From the IMG/VR virus record IMGVR_UViG_3300025728_000008, positions 64,001-128,000 of that record: a stretch of 64,000 nucleotides of DNA. The stretch is one strand, 5' to 3'. The notes beneath the pieces are model-generated. The model made no database searches and had not been told where the DNA came from. It saw nothing but the letters and a program-made list of their open reading frames with translations. A program made the position numbers and the translations under genes. Shown piece after piece: positions 3,019 through 10,847 of the stretch. Every line of letters starts with the position of its first letter. The first letter of the stretch is position 1. Origin of the DNA: a virus.

Positions 3019-3060
3019 GAAAATCTACTGTATACAAACCGTAAATTTCGGTACTAAATT

Positions 3061-3089
3061 AGTATATCATTATTTTTTACGTTGGTCAA
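3061..3089 (-). promoter_or_regulatory. Second (tandem) sigmaA promoter for recD2
   Basis: TTGACC-aacgtaaaaaataatga(17)-TATACT. Confidence 0.7.
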
Positions 3090-3164
3090 TAACTTTTTAA
3101 AATTTTTAGTATCAAAAGAAACTTTTAAACATATTGTGAAGTATAGGCAAAAGCACAAACAAAT

Positions 3165-4013
3165 TTGAAAGGGGTTTTAAATATGATACAAAGTGGAGTA
3201 ATCGCAATTGATGACGGTGGAAGCAGTACTTGTATTGTAACAAAGCATGTGCAAGAAAAGTTTCCTAGTGTTAAAGGGTTATATGGAGACAGAACATTAG
3301 TGAACACAACTGGTAAGCATGACTTTGTTGTAGAGTATAAAGATAAGAAGTATGTAATGGGAACACTTGCAAAATACGATTGTAAGTATCCATTACAAAT
3401 GCACATCAACACAAAATGTCATATCTTCTTTGACTTATCAGTATTGGTTGCGATTCACAAATATGGATACCCTGTAAACTACCTCATAACTTCTGTACCG
3501 ATTAGTACTCATACAGATGAAGAAAAGACACAACGGATGCATCGACTAGCAGGGGAACACACAATTACAGTTAATGGATATAAAAAGACTTTTACAATAA
3601 TGGATGTAAAGGTTGCACCAGAGACAGCAGTTGCTTATTGGTTAAATGAGCCACATGGCAAAACAAGATTCATTGATTTGGGAAGCAGAACAATTGGATA
3701 CGCTACAACAATCTTTGAAGATGGGATTAACAGATTCATTGATACAGAGAGTGGAACAATTAAAGATAAAGGATTAGAAGCATTAGGTGATGACTATGAC
3801 CAAGAATCATTAGCCGATTATATTTGTGGTAAGTTATCTGCAATATGGAAAGAGAATGATAAAGTATTCATTTTGGGTGGTGGCGCTCATGATGGTCAGT
3901 TAGTTGATAATATTAGAAGATACTTTCCAAAAGCAAGTGTAATGGATGACCCACAAATGGTTAATGCATTATCAATGTATCAGCTTGGTAGATTAGCTTT
4001 TGACATGGAATAG
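3165..4013 (+). CDS. parM: ParM/StbA-family actin-like segregation ATPase (true start probably ATG 3183)
   Basis: Actin-fold motifs IAIDDGGSST, VAPET, FIDLGSRT, ILGGGA; RBS AAGGGG before 3183. Confidence 0.85.
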   Translation: MKGVLNMIQSGVIAIDDGGSSTCIVTKHVQEKFPSVKGLYGDRTLVNTTGKHDFVVEYKDKKYVMGTLAKYDCKYPLQMHINTKCHIFFDLSVLVAIHKYGYPVNYLITSVPISTHTDEEKTQRMHRLAGEHTITVNGYKKTFTIMDVKVAPETAVAYWLNEPHGKTRFIDLGSRTIGYATTIFEDGINRFIDTESGTIKDKGLEALGDDYDQESLADYICGKLSAIWKENDKVFILGGGAHDGQLVDNIRRYFPKASVMDDPQMVNALSMYQLGRLAFDME

Positions 4014-4024
4014 GAGGGGATAAT

Positions 4025-4309
4025 ATGAGAACAGAAGAACAAGTAGATGCTATGATTGAAGAAATGACTGCAAGAACTAAGGGCAAGTATATTACTCAAG
4101 GTGTTTCATTTAACAAAACTTGCCCTCGCCAGATGGCGTTACTAAAAAAAGCTCTTATGTTATCAGTCTCCTTTAGTGGTTTAGCAAAAGAAGTATTGGC
4201 ATTACGATTTAGTGACTCTACTCCATCATATTCCCATAATACAAGTAATATGTCCACAAATCAAATCAATAAAGCACCCCAATCAAAAAGTGTTGGAAAT
4301 TTCTTATAA
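4025..4309 (+). CDS. Putative ParR-like adaptor / small DNA-binding protein
   Basis: 94 aa directly after parM with RBS GGAGGG; beta-strand then helices (GVSFN...QMALLKKAL...FSGLAKEVL), RHH-like; disordered C-terminal tail. Confidence 0.6.
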   Translation: MRTEEQVDAMIEEMTARTKGKYITQGVSFNKTCPRQMALLKKALMLSVSFSGLAKEVLALRFSDSTPSYSHNTSNMSTNQINKAPQSKSVGNFL

Positions 4310-4439: not shown

Positions 4440-4563
4440 TTTTGTCCAAAAAGTATGATTTTTTTAAAATTTGAAGTACTAAATGAGTGTCTTAATTGTA
4501 ATTTAGTACTTTTTGGACGAAAATGACACCAGTATTATCAAGGGGTTTGGGATTTCGTCAAAA
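4440..4563. repeat. Nested inverted repeats / iterated sites
   Basis: GTCCAAAAAGTA (4444-4455) with TACTTTTTGGAC (4507-4518); AAGTACTAAAT (4474-4484) with ATTTAGTACTT (4501-4511); third related copy TTTCGTCAAAA at 4553. Confidence 0.8.
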
Positions 4564-4622: not shown

Positions 4623-5087
4623 ATGAAGTTTAAATTAGTTGAAGGTCAAATGAGTTGGGTTAAAGAGGATGCAGTATCACAAATGAATGAACTATTACCA
4701 CTAACTTCTACATCATTAGTTGTAGATATCCCTCAGATTAAGGAATCAATCCACAGATATGTAAGAGAAGGTCTTGGAGATGGAAGGTTTGCAACTGTAG
4801 CCATAGGTGGAACTGGTGTTTTCTGGAAAGCATTTCTTATGTACATTTTCCCGTGGTTTTGCGATATAGCAAAAGTATTTTGCTTAATCAAAATAGCTCA
4901 AGCATTCTATGAAGAAAAGAGAGCAGGTAAAGATGGGTCAAGTGGAATGGGTGCAATCTTCACATATGGAAAATTCTACATCATGTTTTTAATGCTTCCT
5001 TGGTTTGTTGAACTAATTGACCAAATTGGAGGAACTATGTATGACCAAGTAAAAGCTAATCCAACTTTAACATTACCAAAAAGATAA
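4623..5087 (+). CDS. Membrane protein (possible VirB2/pilin-like or channel subunit)
   Basis: 154 aa; RBS GGAGG; hydrophobic helices (VFWKAFLMYIFPWF...; FYIMFLMLPWFVELI). Confidence 0.6.
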   Translation: MKFKLVEGQMSWVKEDAVSQMNELLPLTSTSLVVDIPQIKESIHRYVREGLGDGRFATVAIGGTGVFWKAFLMYIFPWFCDIAKVFCLIKIAQAFYEEKRAGKDGSSGMGAIFTYGKFYIMFLMLPWFVELIDQIGGTMYDQVKANPTLTLPKR

Positions 5088-5099
5088 AGGAGTGATGTC

Positions 5100-5825
5100 A
5101 TGAGAGTAAAATTAAATGGTAATGACTTCTTCCAAGTATCTAGTCCGTTTGGCTCTATAGATTCCGTCCATAAAACTCCACATTCTGGAATAGACTTGGT
5201 TATGGAAGAAGGTACAAAATTATACAGCCCTGTCGATGGTATTGTCGAAAGGGTTGTAGATTATGGAAATCAAAATATTGGTAAAGGAGTCATAATAAAA
5301 ACTAATACAGGAGAAACTATAATTATGGGGCATATGTCTGATACTTCAACAGCAGAAGTAGGAGAAGAGTTGAGTCGAGGTGAATTTGTAGGCTTATCTG
5401 GAAATACGGGACATAGTACTGGAGCACACCTTCATTTAGGAATGAAAGATGCAAATGGAAATGTCATAAATCCAGAAGGACTTCTGAATGATAATTATAA
5501 GAAGCTTCTCAGTAGCACTGAATCCCTTAACCCAATAGAAGATAAAGGTATGCTCCAATTTTTAAACGATTGGAGGAAAGAAGGATTCTTTAAAGCTGTA
5601 TATGGTAAAGATTTCTTCGAGGTAATGAAGGATGCATTTATAGAATTTTTTAGAGACTTGACTCAGTTTGTAGTAGACAATGCAGATTTATTTTTCTTAA
5701 TCCCTGCAATAATTTTAATGTTTGGAACATTCTTAATAGGGAGAAATAAATATTCAAAATTCATAGTCCCGTTATGGTTTGGGTACTTTGTTTCAAGTAT
5801 TGTGCATAACTTATATATGAAATGA
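5100..5825 (+). CDS. M23 (LytM) metallopeptidase with C-terminal membrane anchor
   Basis: HSGIDL (HxxxD) and GNTGHSTGAHLH (HxH); two hydrophobic segments at the C-terminus. Confidence 0.9.
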   Translation: MRVKLNGNDFFQVSSPFGSIDSVHKTPHSGIDLVMEEGTKLYSPVDGIVERVVDYGNQNIGKGVIIKTNTGETIIMGHMSDTSTAEVGEELSRGEFVGLSGNTGHSTGAHLHLGMKDANGNVINPEGLLNDNYKKLLSSTESLNPIEDKGMLQFLNDWRKEGFFKAVYGKDFFEVMKDAFIEFFRDLTQFVVDNADLFFLIPAIILMFGTFLIGRNKYSKFIVPLWFGYFVSSIVHNLYMK

Positions 5826-5853
5826 TAAAAAAAAACAAAGGGAGAGATGTTAT

Positions 5854-6006
5854 ATGGAATATATTTTATTAGCAAAAGTTGGTTTCTTTGTAAAGGCTAT
5901 CGTGAACACGGGGTATGTAATTGCAACTAGCTACTTGGCAAAAACTGGATGGCAATATGTAGAGGACTATAAAACTTCTGTTGAGAATGAGAAAGAGGTG
6001 AAGTAA
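5854..6006 (+). CDS. 50-aa small membrane protein (absent from the ORF track)
   Basis: RBS GGGAG; MEYILLAKVGFFVKAIVNTGYVIATSYLAKTGWQYVEDYKTSVENEKEVK*; the stop abuts the next ATG. Confidence 0.7.
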   Translation: MEYILLAKVGFFVKAIVNTGYVIATSYLAKTGWQYVEDYKTSVENEKEVK

Positions 6007-8802
6007 ATGATTGAATATCCACCTATGGTTATACCTCAAAAGAAAAAGAAAACTTTTAACATTAAAGAATTTGTCAATTTATATAGAGAACCTGTTATCA
6101 CTTATCAAATAACACCAAACAATGCACCAGAAGTTATAGAAAGAGAAGGTCGTGGAAGTAGAAGAAGCACTCCTAGATTCATGGACTTTGAAGAAGATAT
6201 CTTTAACAACAAACAACAATCTGATTTACTCTTAAATACAATCAGTGGTTTATTCTCGAAATTCTATGCACCAGAAAGAATACGATTTTCAAAGAATGGT
6301 ATTAAAGTTAAAATGAATGACATTGTAAGTTACAAGGTTATGCTAGTAGATGGAGCAATGAAATTTTATCTGACTGTCCCTAAGAAGTGGGCTAAAAGCT
6401 TCACTGGAGCTATTAAGAGAGATTGGGGTCAAGTGGATATTACAGAGGTTTCTGAAAGAATCGTAGACTTTAATCCGTCAAGGACTAAAGCAATGGATGT
6501 GCATTTAAGACACCATTATGCATTAGCCTTGAAACATGACAAGACACAAAACGATTCTTTCTATTCTTCATTAGCTTCAATTGCTTCAACAATGGATAAA
6601 GGTGAGAAAGTTTTAATTGACTATAACATCGAACCAGTCAACAACAGTTGGAAAGAAAAGGCTGTAAATAAAATTAAAGAATTTAAGAAAGGTAAAGTCC
6701 CAAACAGAGAAGATTCTTTTACAGCAAATGGAATGGCAGGGAAAGTATTCGATATGTTTAATGTCATATTTGATGAATTTATAGACATGATAGAAACGCT
6801 TATGGGAGCAGATAGTAAAAAGGATGACAAAGCTGAACCTTTATTTGACCTAAAATATACTGACCCGAAATTACATGCAAACGCAAAAGGATGTAAAATA
6901 CAGATTAGGGTGTTGGGTGAAGGACAAGAAGAAAAGAAAATGAAGCATATCTTTAAAAATATTGAGACATCTTTTACTCTTCTGAATGGAGATAATAAAT
7001 TTGTTGTGAGTCATATAAAAACAAAGCGTGGCATAAAATCAATTATAAAGGCAGTTGAAGAAGATAAGCCACAATTAGCAAAAACAACTGACATATACTT
7101 TGAGAAGGAGATGAATAATATTTTGAAAATTCCAAGTAAACAAACACTTAAAGAGTTTGATAAGGTCATCACACAGGACAATTTCACTCGAACAGAAATA
7201 AGTGCAGACTTCTTTTCAGATAAAGATGGTGCTATTCCATTAGGATTCACTTTGGAGAAAGAGTCTAGAAAAATTTACTTTGGAGGATACAAAAGAGATT
7301 GGTGGACACCTAAAGGGAGATATGTAAAAGATAAGACACGCTTAGATGACCGTAGCACTGCCACCATGCTCTTTGGCTCTATGGGGAGTGGTAAGACTAC
7401 CATGAGTGAAACACAAGCTCTATACACCTTTGGAGCGCATTTAAAGGATAGGGTAGAATGGAAGAAGCAAAGTAAGTCTGTTGTAGTATTTGATGTAGCA
7501 GATGGAGCAATGATAAATAACATTTATAACCATATTCCAGACTGGTTAAGAGACAGGGTTGTAGTTTTGAATCATAGTAACTTTAAAACACCTATTGCAG
7601 TAAACAATGCAGACCTTCAAGAATACAATGAAGATATAATGCAAGATGAGGATTATGCTTACACATTAGCAGAGATGGAAGCCAAGTTAGTTTTAGAGAT
7701 TTTAAAGTCAGATAAGACGATGGCAATGGACAGATGGTTTACTTCTGCACTGCAAGCAGTACACACTGTTGATAAGGATTATGGATATATTGAAGCCATG
7801 AGAACATTAATTGATGATGATTTTAGAGCTACAGAAATAATTCCTTTCCTATCTGACAGACGTTTGAAATTGGAAATGCAAACATATAACAATATGGCTT
7901 TGGCAGGTGAGACACTTAAAATAATTCAAACTATTGAAAATAGATTTTCGCAGTTGGAACGTGACCAAAAATTATGGGACTGCATCGCACAAAAGCCTTT
8001 ACGAGATGAAGAAGGTAAAGTAAAGTTAAATTTCCGTAGAATGATGGATGGAGATGAAGATGGAGCATATATGATTCTCGTATACATTCCAAAATCTGGA
8101 GTATCACAATTATACAGAAAATTCTTATTTGCACATTACTTTACAAAAATATGGAACGTTGCATTGTCAAGAGAAGTTGGGTTTGCAGGTCGAGAATACA
8201 GACCAGAAACATTAGTTGTCATAGATGAAATACACCAGATAATAGACATACCATTGATTGGACGATTATTTATAGACTTGTTTAAAGAACCACGTAAATA
8301 CTCTCTACGACTTTGGTTAACATTACATGGATGGTCATCATTAGCAAAAGCAGGTCGAGGAATTGAAGGTGACATTAAACAATCTATTATGGATAATGGA
8401 TGTAACCTTGTAATGTTAAAAGGTGGTGGAGAAGCATTTGAAAGTCTAAGAGACTTCTTGAATCCAATGACAATTGCAGACTTTAACAATCTGATGAATA
8501 TGAAATTCTGTGGCATATTTGCAATCCGTTGGAAAGACAAGAACCATGTATTTCAAGCCAAGTTAGGATTACCATTAGGAATGAATCCAGACTTCCAGAG
8601 ATATAGTGAAGTTGATTCTAATTTCTTAACAGCTTATAAGTCTGAATTTGGTCGAGACAAAGATGAAGTACGTGAAGACAATCTGGATAGAAGTTATCAG
8701 ATGATTGAACAGTCGATTCAAAGTGGTTTCTTGGAAGGAGATGATTCAGAGTGGCAAAGTCTAGAAGGACTTGGTATGGCAGAGAAGAAATCCAAAAAGT
8801 GA
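6007..8802 (+). CDS. VirD4/TraG/VirB4-like (FtsK-HerA superfamily) DNA-transfer ATPase
   Basis: 931 aa; Walker A GSMGSGKT, VVVFD, Walker B LVVIDEIHQ, PRKYSL arginine motif. Confidence 0.8.
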   Translation: MIEYPPMVIPQKKKKTFNIKEFVNLYREPVITYQITPNNAPEVIEREGRGSRRSTPRFMDFEEDIFNNKQQSDLLLNTISGLFSKFYAPERIRFSKNGIKVKMNDIVSYKVMLVDGAMKFYLTVPKKWAKSFTGAIKRDWGQVDITEVSERIVDFNPSRTKAMDVHLRHHYALALKHDKTQNDSFYSSLASIASTMDKGEKVLIDYNIEPVNNSWKEKAVNKIKEFKKGKVPNREDSFTANGMAGKVFDMFNVIFDEFIDMIETLMGADSKKDDKAEPLFDLKYTDPKLHANAKGCKIQIRVLGEGQEEKKMKHIFKNIETSFTLLNGDNKFVVSHIKTKRGIKSIIKAVEEDKPQLAKTTDIYFEKEMNNILKIPSKQTLKEFDKVITQDNFTRTEISADFFSDKDGAIPLGFTLEKESRKIYFGGYKRDWWTPKGRYVKDKTRLDDRSTATMLFGSMGSGKTTMSETQALYTFGAHLKDRVEWKKQSKSVVVFDVADGAMINNIYNHIPDWLRDRVVVLNHSNFKTPIAVNNADLQEYNEDIMQDEDYAYTLAEMEAKLVLEILKSDKTMAMDRWFTSALQAVHTVDKDYGYIEAMRTLIDDDFRATEIIPFLSDRRLKLEMQTYNNMALAGETLKIIQTIENRFSQLERDQKLWDCIAQKPLRDEEGKVKLNFRRMMDGDEDGAYMILVYIPKSGVSQLYRKFLFAHYFTKIWNVALSREVGFAGREYRPETLVVIDEIHQIIDIPLIGRLFIDLFKEPRKYSLRLWLTLHGWSSLAKAGRGIEGDIKQSIMDNGCNLVMLKGGGEAFESLRDFLNPMTIADFNNLMNMKFCGIFAIRWKDKNHVFQAKLGLPLGMNPDFQRYSEVDSNFLTAYKSEFGRDKDEVREDNLDRSYQMIEQSIQSGFLEGDDSEWQSLEGLGMAEKKSKK

Positions 8803-9617
8803 CCTATGACTTTATTCAGTCAAATGTTAAACCAACAATCAAAGATTTGGAGTTGTTGAAGATTGTGAGTGAACGAAAATTGGTTAACAGGTCACATTTG
8901 GAAATCATTACACCTTCATTTAGACACTTAACTAACAACAGAACAAGGCTCATTAATCGAACTATTAGGAAGTTATTTGATTCAATGTGTTTAGATAAGG
9001 TGCATGAGAAACAAGAATTAGGAAAAGGGAATGCCCCTGCTATCCTCGCTCTAGACAGGGGTGGCTCAATCCTTCTTGATATTCCTCATAGACGTAGGAT
9101 ACCACAGCAAAAGATGCTTGTCAATGGGAAGATTGAAATAAGAAGACATGTACCTTCAACATATCGTCATGCTAATGGAGTTAACCAAGTTGAAGTTGAT
9201 ACAATATTGTTTTGTCAAGAAAATGGCTATGAATTTGAATTGTGGGAGCATGAGAAACATGCTTCCTTCACATACAACAATGAGGACATACTAGTTATTC
9301 CAGATGTTTTCTATAGATTGAAAATAAATGAAAAGTCTATAGATTTCTTTTTGGAATTTGACACTGGAACAGAAGACAGATTGAGCAAGAGGAAATTACC
9401 TGTAATTTATAATAAAATCATCAACTATAAAAAATATAAAAGGTCTGGCTTGTGGACTTCACATTCAGAAACTTTCCCAATTATATTATTAGTAACAGAA
9501 GATTCTAAACGTATTCCATATTTTAATGCAAAATGCAAAGAAAATGGGATACAAGGGTTTGGAGTTTATCATGAGAATTATACTAAGTTTATGGAGCATC
9601 TTGCCAAAATGGTTTAG
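8751..9617 (+). CDS. Replication-relaxation (Replic_Relax) family protein
   Basis: N-terminal wHTH; H..GVN, IPDVF, FFLEFDTGTE, KIINYKKY PD-(D/E)xK-type signature; overlaps the ATPase gene. Confidence 0.85.
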   Translation: MAKSRRTWYGREEIQKVTYDFIQSNVKPTIKDLELLKIVSERKLVNRSHLEIITPSFRHLTNNRTRLINRTIRKLFDSMCLDKVHEKQELGKGNAPAILALDRGGSILLDIPHRRRIPQQKMLVNGKIEIRRHVPSTYRHANGVNQVEVDTILFCQENGYEFELWEHEKHASFTYNNEDILVIPDVFYRLKINEKSIDFFLEFDTGTEDRLSKRKLPVIYNKIINYKKYKRSGLWTSHSETFPIILLVTEDSKRIPYFNAKCKENGIQGFGVYHENYTKFMEHLAKMV

Positions 9618-9630
9618 ATGCTCTTATTTT
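9594..9630 (+). terminator. Intrinsic terminator of the transfer module
   Basis: GAGCATCT...AGATGCTC followed by TTATTTT. Confidence 0.6.
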
Positions 9631-9759
9631 GCGTTCTAAGGCTTTTGAATACAAATACTCCAGAATGAATTTTAGAACGCTCTATGAAGCCGAGAGACAG
9701 GTTTAAATTAATTCTAAGATACTCACAGGGACAAAGATTAAAAATAATAATATATTTTG

Positions 9760-9788
9760 TTGACAAATTCGTCTAAGTATAATATAAT
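9760..9788 (+). promoter_or_regulatory. sigmaA promoter for recombinase 1
   Basis: TTGACA-aattcgtctaagtataa(17)-TATAAT. Confidence 0.85.
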
Positions 9789-9830
9789 ATGATTATAGGG
9801 TCACTTAATAAAAATTCGGAGGTCGATATT

Positions 9831-10847
9831 ATGGCAAAATTAGGAAACGTATTTCATTTGAATAGCAGAGAAGAAAATAGAAACCCATATGCAAGTATTC
9901 TTACGTTCTTGAATCGTAAAGGTCAAGACAGTAAAAATACAAAGGATACTTACCAAAGACATATTCAAGATTTCTTTCATTCGATGAGAGGGAAGGAATT
10001 GTCTCAATTACTGGAAGATGACTTAGTATTTACAAAGACACAAACAAAGACATACCAAGTAGCTTTAAAAGAACAATATAAGGGAAGTACAGTTAACAAT
10101 GTTATAAGTGCATTAAAAGAGTGCTATAACCAATTAGAAGATGATGGATTCAATGTAAGTGCATCGTGGTTTAATTTAGAAAGATATGATGAGCATGATT
10201 CAGAAAGTTGGGATGCTTTCACACATCCAGAAGTTATTCAAATTATTAATTTAGTTTCAAGCACAAGAGCAGGTCGTCAAAAGTCATTACTTGTAAGATT
10301 AGCATATGCTACAGCATTTCGTAAAAAGTCATTGTTAGATTTAAAATTCTCTGACATTGTTGAAATTAGTGGAATCTGGTACATCAAAACTTTAGGTAAA
10401 GGTAATAAATGGTCGCACAAAAAATTGTCTGATGACCTATACAATGAGCTTATGAGTTTCAAAGAAGAAGCTAAACGAGACAAAATTTTTACTCTTACAG
10501 TAAAAACAGTAAACAAGATGATGGACTATATCCGTGATAACATTGATTTTGGTGACAGACGAATTGTATTTCATAGCTTCAAAAAAGCAAGTATTGAAGA
10601 AGTAAATGTAATTACAGGTGGAGATTTACGTGCAATGCAAGCGCATGGAGACCATAGCAATCCTGCAACAACAATTGATAATTACCTTGCTAAGAAGAAG
10701 TTAGAAGACCTAGTGGAAGTAGATGTGAATAGTAAAGTGCCAGTTGAAGAATTTGAAAAGCTAACAAGAGATGATTTGCTTGAATTATTAGCAAATGCAG
10801 ACAGAAACATTCAAATACAGTTATTGAGAAAGATGGGTAAAATGTAA
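9831..10847 (+). CDS. Tyrosine recombinase-family protein with degenerate HxxR motif (ORF track start 9789; RBS favours 9831)
   Basis: SAM-like N-domain; TAFRKK (R), GKGNK (K), FHSFKK (HxxK), HGDH, DNY; RBS GGAGGT before ATG 9831. Confidence 0.85.
   Translation: MAKLGNVFHLNSREENRNPYASILTFLNRKGQDSKNTKDTYQRHIQDFFHSMRGKELSQLLEDDLVFTKTQTKTYQVALKEQYKGSTVNNVISALKECYNQLEDDGFNVSASWFNLERYDEHDSESWDAFTHPEVIQIINLVSSTRAGRQKSLLVRLAYATAFRKKSLLDLKFSDIVEISGIWYIKTLGKGNKWSHKKLSDDLYNELMSFKEEAKRDKIFTLTVKTVNKMMDYIRDNIDFGDRRIVFHSFKKASIEEVNVITGGDLRAMQAHGDHSNPATTIDNYLAKKKLEDLVEVDVNSKVPVEEFEKLTRDDLLELLANADRNIQIQLLRKMGKM

Follow-up and report, generated by a model that had tools for sequence, protein, structure and literature searches.

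A VirB4-type ATPase, a MobC-family nuclease and a membrane-anchored M23 peptidase in a conserved operon of a Tsamsa-like Bacillus phage: a possible cut-down type IV secretion module

The closest described relatives of the system considered here were found in two groups of phages. In phages 0305phi8-36 and SPO1, Pathria et al. (2012; PMC3357382) recognized a ‘DNA translocation operon’ formed by a relaxase, a coupling ATPase devoid of a membrane domain, membrane anchors and an MreB-like protein, found that its deletion leaves plaque size and yield unchanged, and proposed a virion-free ‘propagation by translocation’. In the ‘Tyrovirus’ phages (Tsamsa, Thrax1-5, Kirov, Izhevsk and pW2), a type IV secretion system (T4SS) protein, a replication-relaxation protein, an M23 peptidase, ParM and Xer have been annotated (PMC9703825, PMC10454425) within the gp11–gp19 ‘plasmid-like region’, for which capture from a conjugative plasmid and a plasmid-prophage stage were suggested in 2022 (PMC9703825), with similar views expressed for Kirov (PMC10454425). 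The present analysis deals with the five-gene operon found at positions 4623–9617 of a 64,000-nucleotide stretch of viral DNA (positions 64,001–128,000 of IMG/VR record IMGVR_UViG_3300025728_000008; hereafter the window, whose own numbering is used throughout). The evidence supports the derivation of this operon, as a conserved unit, from a type IV secretion or conjugation machine, with a soluble VirB4-type ATPase and a nuclease of the MobC relaxase family among its components.

The window is part of a 159,412-bp virus record, judged to be 96% complete, and its region 4600–9700 matches 25 Bacillus phages of the Tsamsa-like (‘Tyrovirus’) group, including C30-3, Thrax1-5, pW2, Tsamsa, Izhevsk and Skywalker, with 74–90% DNA identity. 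It belongs to a Tsamsa-like siphophage of the Bacillus cereus group, one of the giant Bacillus phages, with 80–90% DNA identity to phages already published, and structural genes, including an open reading frame (ORF) of 3,114 codons, are found downstream of the operon. The genes are the same as those of the Tyrovirus ‘plasmid-like region’, so that the set has already been annotated and discussed in sister phages, and what is added here is a sharper parts list: the Tyrovirus papers favoured plasmid-prophage maintenance and dealt with neither the fold nor the pilin-like gene nor the occurrence of the module beyond the group. With the 0305phi8-36/SPO1 operon the Tsamsa-like version shares a homologous ATPase, a Replic_Relax/MobC-type nuclease, a linked actin-like gene and small membrane proteins encoded upstream. 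It differs from it in the M23 peptidase fused to a membrane anchor, in the Xer neighbour and in being found in a temperate, probably plasmid-forming phage. The idea of a cell-to-cell transfer is, therefore, a rediscovery of the 2012 proposal.

All five ORFs lie on the + strand and encode proteins of 154 (4623–5087), 241 (5100–5825), 50 (5854–6006), 931 (6007–8802) and 288 residues (8751–9617), the last from a GTG start codon. Each is preceded by a strong GGAGG-type ribosome-binding site, and the gaps between successive ORFs measure 12, 28 and 0 nucleotides (the stop codon of the 50-codon gene directly abuts the ATG of the ATPase gene), followed by a 52-nucleotide overlap. An intrinsic terminator (9593–9631, +) closes the operon: its hairpin (9593–9624, −16.7 kcal/mol, z −4.1, 14-nucleotide loop) overlaps the stop codon of the last gene, is followed by the sequence UUAUUUU and has a stem that covaries across related phages. 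ORF positions, spacing and the hairpin with its U-tract all agree with the first-pass annotation of the window, made from the sequence alone, which had indicated five tightly coupled genes ended by a terminator. Together with the upstream palindrome discussed below, they make up a predicted single, regulated transcription unit.

The 931-residue ATPase has the fold of VirB4 in both its domains, namely the VirB4-specific N-terminal domain (residues 25–390, approximately) and the ATPase domain of the FtsK/HerA superfamily (approx. 398–880). The structural runners-up, TrwB (22.3), DndH-C (21.3) and HerA (20.6), score close behind, as expected of members of one superfamily, and the resemblance to TrwB is confined to the shared ATPase core. 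No Pfam or NCBIfam model, including CagE_TrbE_VirB and AAA_10, matched the protein at an E-value of 0.01, nor did any sequence in the PDB. The family profiles miss this divergent clade, and the assignment to VirB4 is therefore based on the fold. The GSGKT sequence of Walker A and the DE pair of Walker B are invariant across a family in which identity falls to 19%. The traits of a VirD4/TraG coupling protein are absent, in that no hydrophobic segment is found along the 931 residues, no Pfam model matches and the N-domain is VirB4-type. Thus, the initial description of the protein as a VirD4/VirB4-like ATPase was right and can be sharpened to VirB4-like (soluble, with no transmembrane helix and with a VirB4 N-domain), at variance with the VirD4/TraG-like coupling protein of the 2012 paper. 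VirB4 is the only protein ubiquitous among T4SSs (PMC3548315, PMC4027160). As a side observation, NCBI lists under Klebsiella pneumoniae, on a contig of 166 kb, a 927-residue protein (P0007) with 93% identity to residues 420–931 of the window ATPase, the C-terminal part used in the search; contamination with a Bacillus phage or mislabelling of the assembly is the most likely reason.

The product of the last gene matches the Replic_Relax family (PF13814; 50.3 bits with a cut-off of 25.3, E = 4e-13; PHROG 9381, ‘replication initiation by nicking’) and consists of an N-terminal winged-helix, predicted DNA-binding part followed by a nuclease domain of the PD-(D/E)XK type. Replic_Relax had been placed in the PD-(D/E)XK superfamily (PMC3424549), PF13814 defines the MobC relaxase class of CONJscan (PMC5357655) and the phage proteins of this type were connected with CloDF13 MobC by profile comparison (Pathria et al., PMC3357382). 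Among 18 distinct Replic_Relax sequences, including SPO1 gp27.3, residues H140, D185 (part of an IPD motif), E202, D204 and K222 never vary, and E148, E168 and E208 are retained in 17. By sequence, the protein is a member of the MOBC/PD-(D/E)XK relaxase family, and the conservation of its acidic and lysine residues as far as SPO1 is reported here for the first time.

The 154-residue protein (PHROG 30989) is formed, as judged from hydropathy, by two hydrophobic helices around a charged loop. It has no direct Pfam match to TrbC or T4SS_pilin. On plasmids of Clostridium botulinum and Clostridium sporogenes, the syntenic position is held by a TrbC (PF04956) gene overlapping that of the ATPase, and in SPO1 and the metagenomic phage L005 by T4SS_pilin-like genes (L numbers are our labels for related loci). 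The neighbours of the protein in a language-model space (Atlas) include TrbC/T4SS_pilin clusters, with values of 0.81–0.82 that are below threshold. Taken together, synteny and topology are suggestive of a VirB2/TrbC-like subunit, an assignment not made previously. The 50-residue peptide (PHROG 31209) is conserved in 16 of 16 loci, with a conserved DYK..SVE..EK tail. It had been described as a membrane peptide: the ORF and its position are borne out, the membrane nature only weakly, the peptide being weakly hydrophobic or amphipathic. It is a candidate VirB3-like partner by gene position only, because its gene abuts that of the ATPase, as VirB3 genes often do.

In the M23 (LytM-type) metallopeptidase (Peptidase_M23, E = 6e-19), the peptidase domain spans approximately residues 1–130, with H28xxxD32, H78 and H110xH112 in place, and is followed by a helical linker and a two-helix membrane domain (hydrophobic helices at about 194–216 and 221–240). 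No hydrophobic segment is found at the N-terminus. The Pfam match, the residues and hydropathy are all in agreement with the earlier claim of intact motifs, a C-terminal anchor and no signal peptide. The same annotation had listed wall hydrolases among the core parts of Gram-positive transfer systems, a place that the hydrolase does not hold throughout the phage family. The catalytic H/D/H/HxH set is kept in 12 of 14 distinct homologs; in L017 (3100–3516) the peptidase domain is absent from a protein of 138 residues, in L020 (6989–7810) it is degenerate (Pfam E = 0.007, with neither HxxxD nor HxH), and the SPO1 version of the operon contains no peptidase. The hydrolase is thus a frequent accessory rather than a fixed core component. 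The linker and two-helix membrane part, retained in L017 and L020 and in all other homologs, form the best conserved region of the protein, a feature also described here for the first time. In four of the related loci (L014, L015, L016 and L024), approximately 0.8–0.95 kb of extra DNA is present between the genes of the 154-residue and M23 proteins.

The order of the five genes is kept in all 16 related loci for which the upstream flank is available, down to 48% identity of the ATPase, which makes the arrangement far beyond chance. Lack of conservation as a unit had been named at the outset as an observation that would speak against a transfer function, and the opposite was found. Conservation extends to the flanks. 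The operon is preceded by a gene for an actin-like (Alp/ParM-type) filament protein (3165–4013, +; ALP_N, E = 1.7e-13), homologs of which occupy corresponding positions in SPO1 (gp27.9; ALP_N, 2e-27) and Geobacillus phage D6E (ORF22; ALP_N, 1.7e-17), and which is replaced by a tubulin-family gene in L001 and L002; the linkage with actin- or tubulin-like genes is, thus, a repeated one. A Xer-type recombinase gene is found beside the module in 15 of the 16 loci.

A profile search of 1.8 billion proteins returned 488 relatives of the ATPase, and a pattern scan of genome contigs with the close alignment returned five loci, the broad alignment being too divergent for the scan. One to three small transmembrane proteins precede the ATPase in SPO1, L003, L004, L005, L006, L008 and L025, and Replic_Relax follows it in SPO1, L003, L005, L006 and L025, not in L004 and L008. 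SPO1, a strictly virulent myovirus, encodes the ATPase as gp27.4 (23% identity to that of the window, E = 1e-36) along with gp27.3 (Replic_Relax) and the actin-like gp27.9; ORF201 of 0305phi8-36 belongs to the same family, and phage D6E (L032) carries a homolog at 4908–7166, with ORF22, annotated as ‘hypothetical’, at 3022–3858. In a 37-kb Terrisporobacter prophage, the ATPase gene is located between lysis genes and the integrase gene. The presence of the core in the virulent SPO1 family and in small integrating temperate phages implies that the module is not tied to a plasmid-prophage lifestyle. Incidentally, the ATPase homolog is misnamed ‘lipid A export ATP-binding/permease MsbA’ in D6E, JL and vB_BceS-M2.

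The conjugation-like origin suggested in the first-pass annotation is sustained by the VirB4 homology of both ATPase domains, the MobC-family Replic_Relax, the pilin-like gene in the TrbC/VirB2 position and the kept gene order. With the conjugative T4SSs of monoderm bacteria (ICEBs1 with ConE and CwlT, pCF10 with PrgJ and PrgK, pCW3 with TcpF and TcpG) the phage operon has in common a VirB4 motor without transmembrane helices, a relaxase, small VirB3-like or pilin-like membrane partners and a membrane-anchored peptidoglycan hydrolase; PrgK, too, carries a LytM/M23 domain. It differs from them because no VirD4, VirB6-like or VirB8-like component was found with Pfam models, the relaxase is of the atypical MOBC/PD-(D/E)XK class and the hydrolase lacks a signal peptide and is anchored at its C-terminus. 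The archaeal Ced and Ted systems demonstrate that a minimal VirB2, VirB4 and VirB6 machine moves DNA between cells with neither VirD4 nor a relaxase (PMC9905601). These are likewise domesticated minimal T4SSs built on a VirB4-like ATPase and two-helix VirB2-like proteins, a likeness to be taken as an analogy, but they import DNA into archaea and possess a VirB6-like multi-span channel (CedA or TedA) not found in the phage genome.

By taking these elements into account, the operon may tentatively be viewed as a cut-down, phage-adapted derivative of a monoderm T4SS or conjugation machine that moves phage DNA at the cell membrane, a reading to which we give a probability of about 0.45. The sequence of events that we infer, along with its direction and destination, would start with the filament delivering phage DNA to a site at the membrane, where the Replic_Relax protein would bind and nick it. 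A VirB4 hexamer docked on the small membrane proteins would then power the assembly or the gating of a narrow conduit, the M23 domain, where present, would open the peptidoglycan locally and the DNA, probably single-stranded, would cross the membrane towards a neighbouring cell or the forespore. Deletion of the 0305phi8-36 operon has no effect on plaque growth (PMC3357382), which fits an accessory module, dispensable for ordinary lytic growth. If it does move DNA, phages of spore-formers would gain a second, capsid-free route of spread or persistence, with a bearing on phage survival in soil and in spores and on the boundary between phages and conjugative elements, and the operon would be the smallest known bacterial VirB4-based DNA conduit, comparable to archaeal Ced and Ted.

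Several observations weigh against DNA translocation at the membrane. With Pfam models, no TraG-D_C, FtsK_SpoIIIE, TrbL/VirB6 or TcpC protein was detected in the 159-kb genome, in agreement with the initial statement that neither a second ATPase nor VirB6/VirB8-like genes are recognizable; this is a weak negative result, because the VirB4 homolog itself escapes Pfam and divergent forms of the other parts could be missed as well. With no VirD4-type coupling protein, VirB6 or VirB8 found, the operon does not qualify as an autonomous conjugation system by current criteria and shows no recognizable channel-forming subunit. The intergenic regions on either side of it yielded neither an origin-of-transfer-like sequence nor a conserved candidate for a nic site; an inverted repeat (9631–9639/9672–9680) considered as a transfer origin was rejected, being poorly conserved in relatives. 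The hhalign comparison of the 154-residue protein with the SPO1/L005/L006/Clostridium group is borderline (E = 1.7e-4, probability 50%). The peptidase has been lost in two lineages and is missing from the SPO1 version, and, where it is present, the M23 domain has no signal peptide to take it to the wall. Finally, the ATPase gene in small temperate phages holds a ‘moron’ position, typical of exclusion or conversion genes expressed in lysogens.

A role in maintenance or replication of the phage as an episome is the reading closest to that of the Tyrovirus papers. In such a case, Replic_Relax would nick DNA for replication or resolution, and the ATPase with its membrane proteins would tether or partition the plasmid prophage in concert with ParM or TubZ and Xer. 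The location of the module, with an actin-like partition pair on one side and a Xer recombinase on the other, the PHROG label of the nuclease, the plasmid-prophage interpretation already published (PMC9703825, PMC10454425) and the close copies on Bacillus ‘plasmids’ of 162–166 kb, which are phage genomes, would all be accommodated. However, the core and the actin-like gene are also found in strictly virulent SPO1-type phages and 0305phi8-36, and the ATPase and small membrane proteins in small phages equipped with integrases, none of which needs plasmid upkeep. No part in partition is known for a VirB4 fold, a pilin-like protein or a wall peptidase. Furthermore, a separate replication initiator is annotated elsewhere in Tyrovirus phages (PMC9703825), so that Replic_Relax need not be the replicase. 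The presence in virulent and integrating phages, the status of VirB4 as the T4SS hallmark and the separate initiator are the reasons why DNA handling is favoured over plasmid maintenance, which is regarded as unlikely.

Equally unlikely, in our estimate, is a membrane-sited exclusion or defence function, in which an exapted T4SS remnant, similar to the HerA–nuclease pairs, would act as an anchored ATPase–nuclease couple that blocks or attacks incoming foreign DNA, from conjugating plasmids or from superinfecting phages. The HerA-like ATPase core and the PD-(D/E)XK partner would suit this function, as would the moron position held in small prophages. The HerA-type alternative named in the first-pass annotation is weakened by the N-domain, which is VirB4-type here and a HAS-barrel in the HerA–nuclease complexes (DUF4297-HerA, SIR2-HerA and TdpAB) and in NurA–HerA, by the membrane partners of the phage ATPase and by the linkage to filament genes. 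Moreover, PADLOC yielded only mad8, a generic ATPase domain (E = 1.6e-10), with no match for the nuclease and no system.

A more speculative proposal, which we hold to be improbable, is that filament and VirB4 module together form a device for getting the viral genome into the host endospore. In this view, a copy of the genome would be pushed polewards by the actin- or tubulin-like filament, and one strand would then be led through the sporulation septum into the forespore by the joint action of relaxase, VirB4 motor, pilin-like conduit and peptidase. Such a function would explain why virulent, integrating and plasmid-forming phages alike retain the module, why it is dispensable for plaque formation and why its hosts are almost always endospore-formers: when SPO1 gp27.4 was used as the query, 143 of 144 phage records were from phages infecting Bacillus, Geobacillus, Lysinibacillus, Alicyclobacillus, Brevibacillus or Clostridium, and phages of Staphylococcus, Listeria, Enterococcus, Streptococcus and lactic acid bacteria were absent from the matches. 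The sole exception is Microcystis phage MaeS (H108), whose host assignment may be doubtful, its size of 80 kb matching that of the Bacillus Slash/Staley group, in which the gene is likewise present. The plasmid matches (Clostridium, Bacillus, Laceyella, Alicyclobacillus and Thermoactinomyces) are also all from endospore-forming hosts. This distribution fits the spore hypothesis without proving it and might mirror a common gene pool instead of a function. SpoIVA does not discriminate, its background being too high: it is present in 323 of the 401 Bacillota genomes sampled and in 12 of the 13 with an ATPase-family match. Upstream of the operon, no convincing match to a sigma-E/sigma-K-type ‘CATA’ promoter was seen, no position matrix having been run. 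The SpoIIQ–SpoIIIAH channel shares with the phage system a membrane-anchored LytM/M23-fold protein in an endospore-former, but the anchor of the phage protein is C-terminal instead of N-terminal and no SpoIIIA-like partners accompany it, so that the resemblance is an analogy only. A kinship of the M23 protein with SpoIIQ was also considered and rejected, the SpoIIQ model (E = 0.005) giving a weaker match than ordinary M23 enzymes (MepM, E = 2e-12).

That the operon is a functionless relic of a captured conjugative-plasmid segment, as the proposed capture (PMC9703825), the incomplete T4SS gene set and the lack of a laboratory phenotype upon deletion (PMC3357382) might suggest, is very hard to reconcile with frames, ribosome-binding sites, catalytic motifs, gene order and covarying operator and terminator all kept across lineages at about 20% protein identity.

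The putative operator is a palindrome (4475–4510, +), identified by aligning the upstream regions of 10 loci, with 10-nucleotide arms (4475–4484 and 4501–4510) that enclose a −10-like box upstream of the operon; a direct copy of one arm is present further upstream, and the arrangement is found at the same position in L010–L023. From the sequence pattern, it looks like a repressor-controlled promoter. The two arms differ in concert between lineages, being GTACCAAAT/ATTTGGTAC or GTGTTCAGA/TCTGAACAC in the 10 aligned loci, the pattern expected when operator and repressor co-evolve. A conserved block within 9640–9700 (consensus approximately ATTGCACCAGAAT..AAATTAGAAACGC), located between the terminator and the next promoter, could be a protein-binding or recombination site. 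The Xer-like tyrosine recombinase gene that follows (9789–10847, +; Phage_integrase, E = 5e-10) is preceded by a perfect sigma-A promoter (9760–9788; TTGACA-17-TATAAT, 12 of 12 matches), both hexamers of which are invariant in nine related loci.

On the opposite side of the operon, the gene of the actin-like protein is followed by that of a small adaptor-like protein (4025–4309, +), which has no Pfam match, is kept beside the Alp gene in 13 loci and has a homolog labelled ParG/RHH-like in the Tyrovirus paper (PMC9703825). A RecD2-type helicase gene (621–2954, −) is transcribed divergently from that of the actin-like protein, and the segment 14075–15304, downstream, encodes a PIN-PhoH (YlaK-like) protein; in L001, a distant relative, the two are likewise found near the module.

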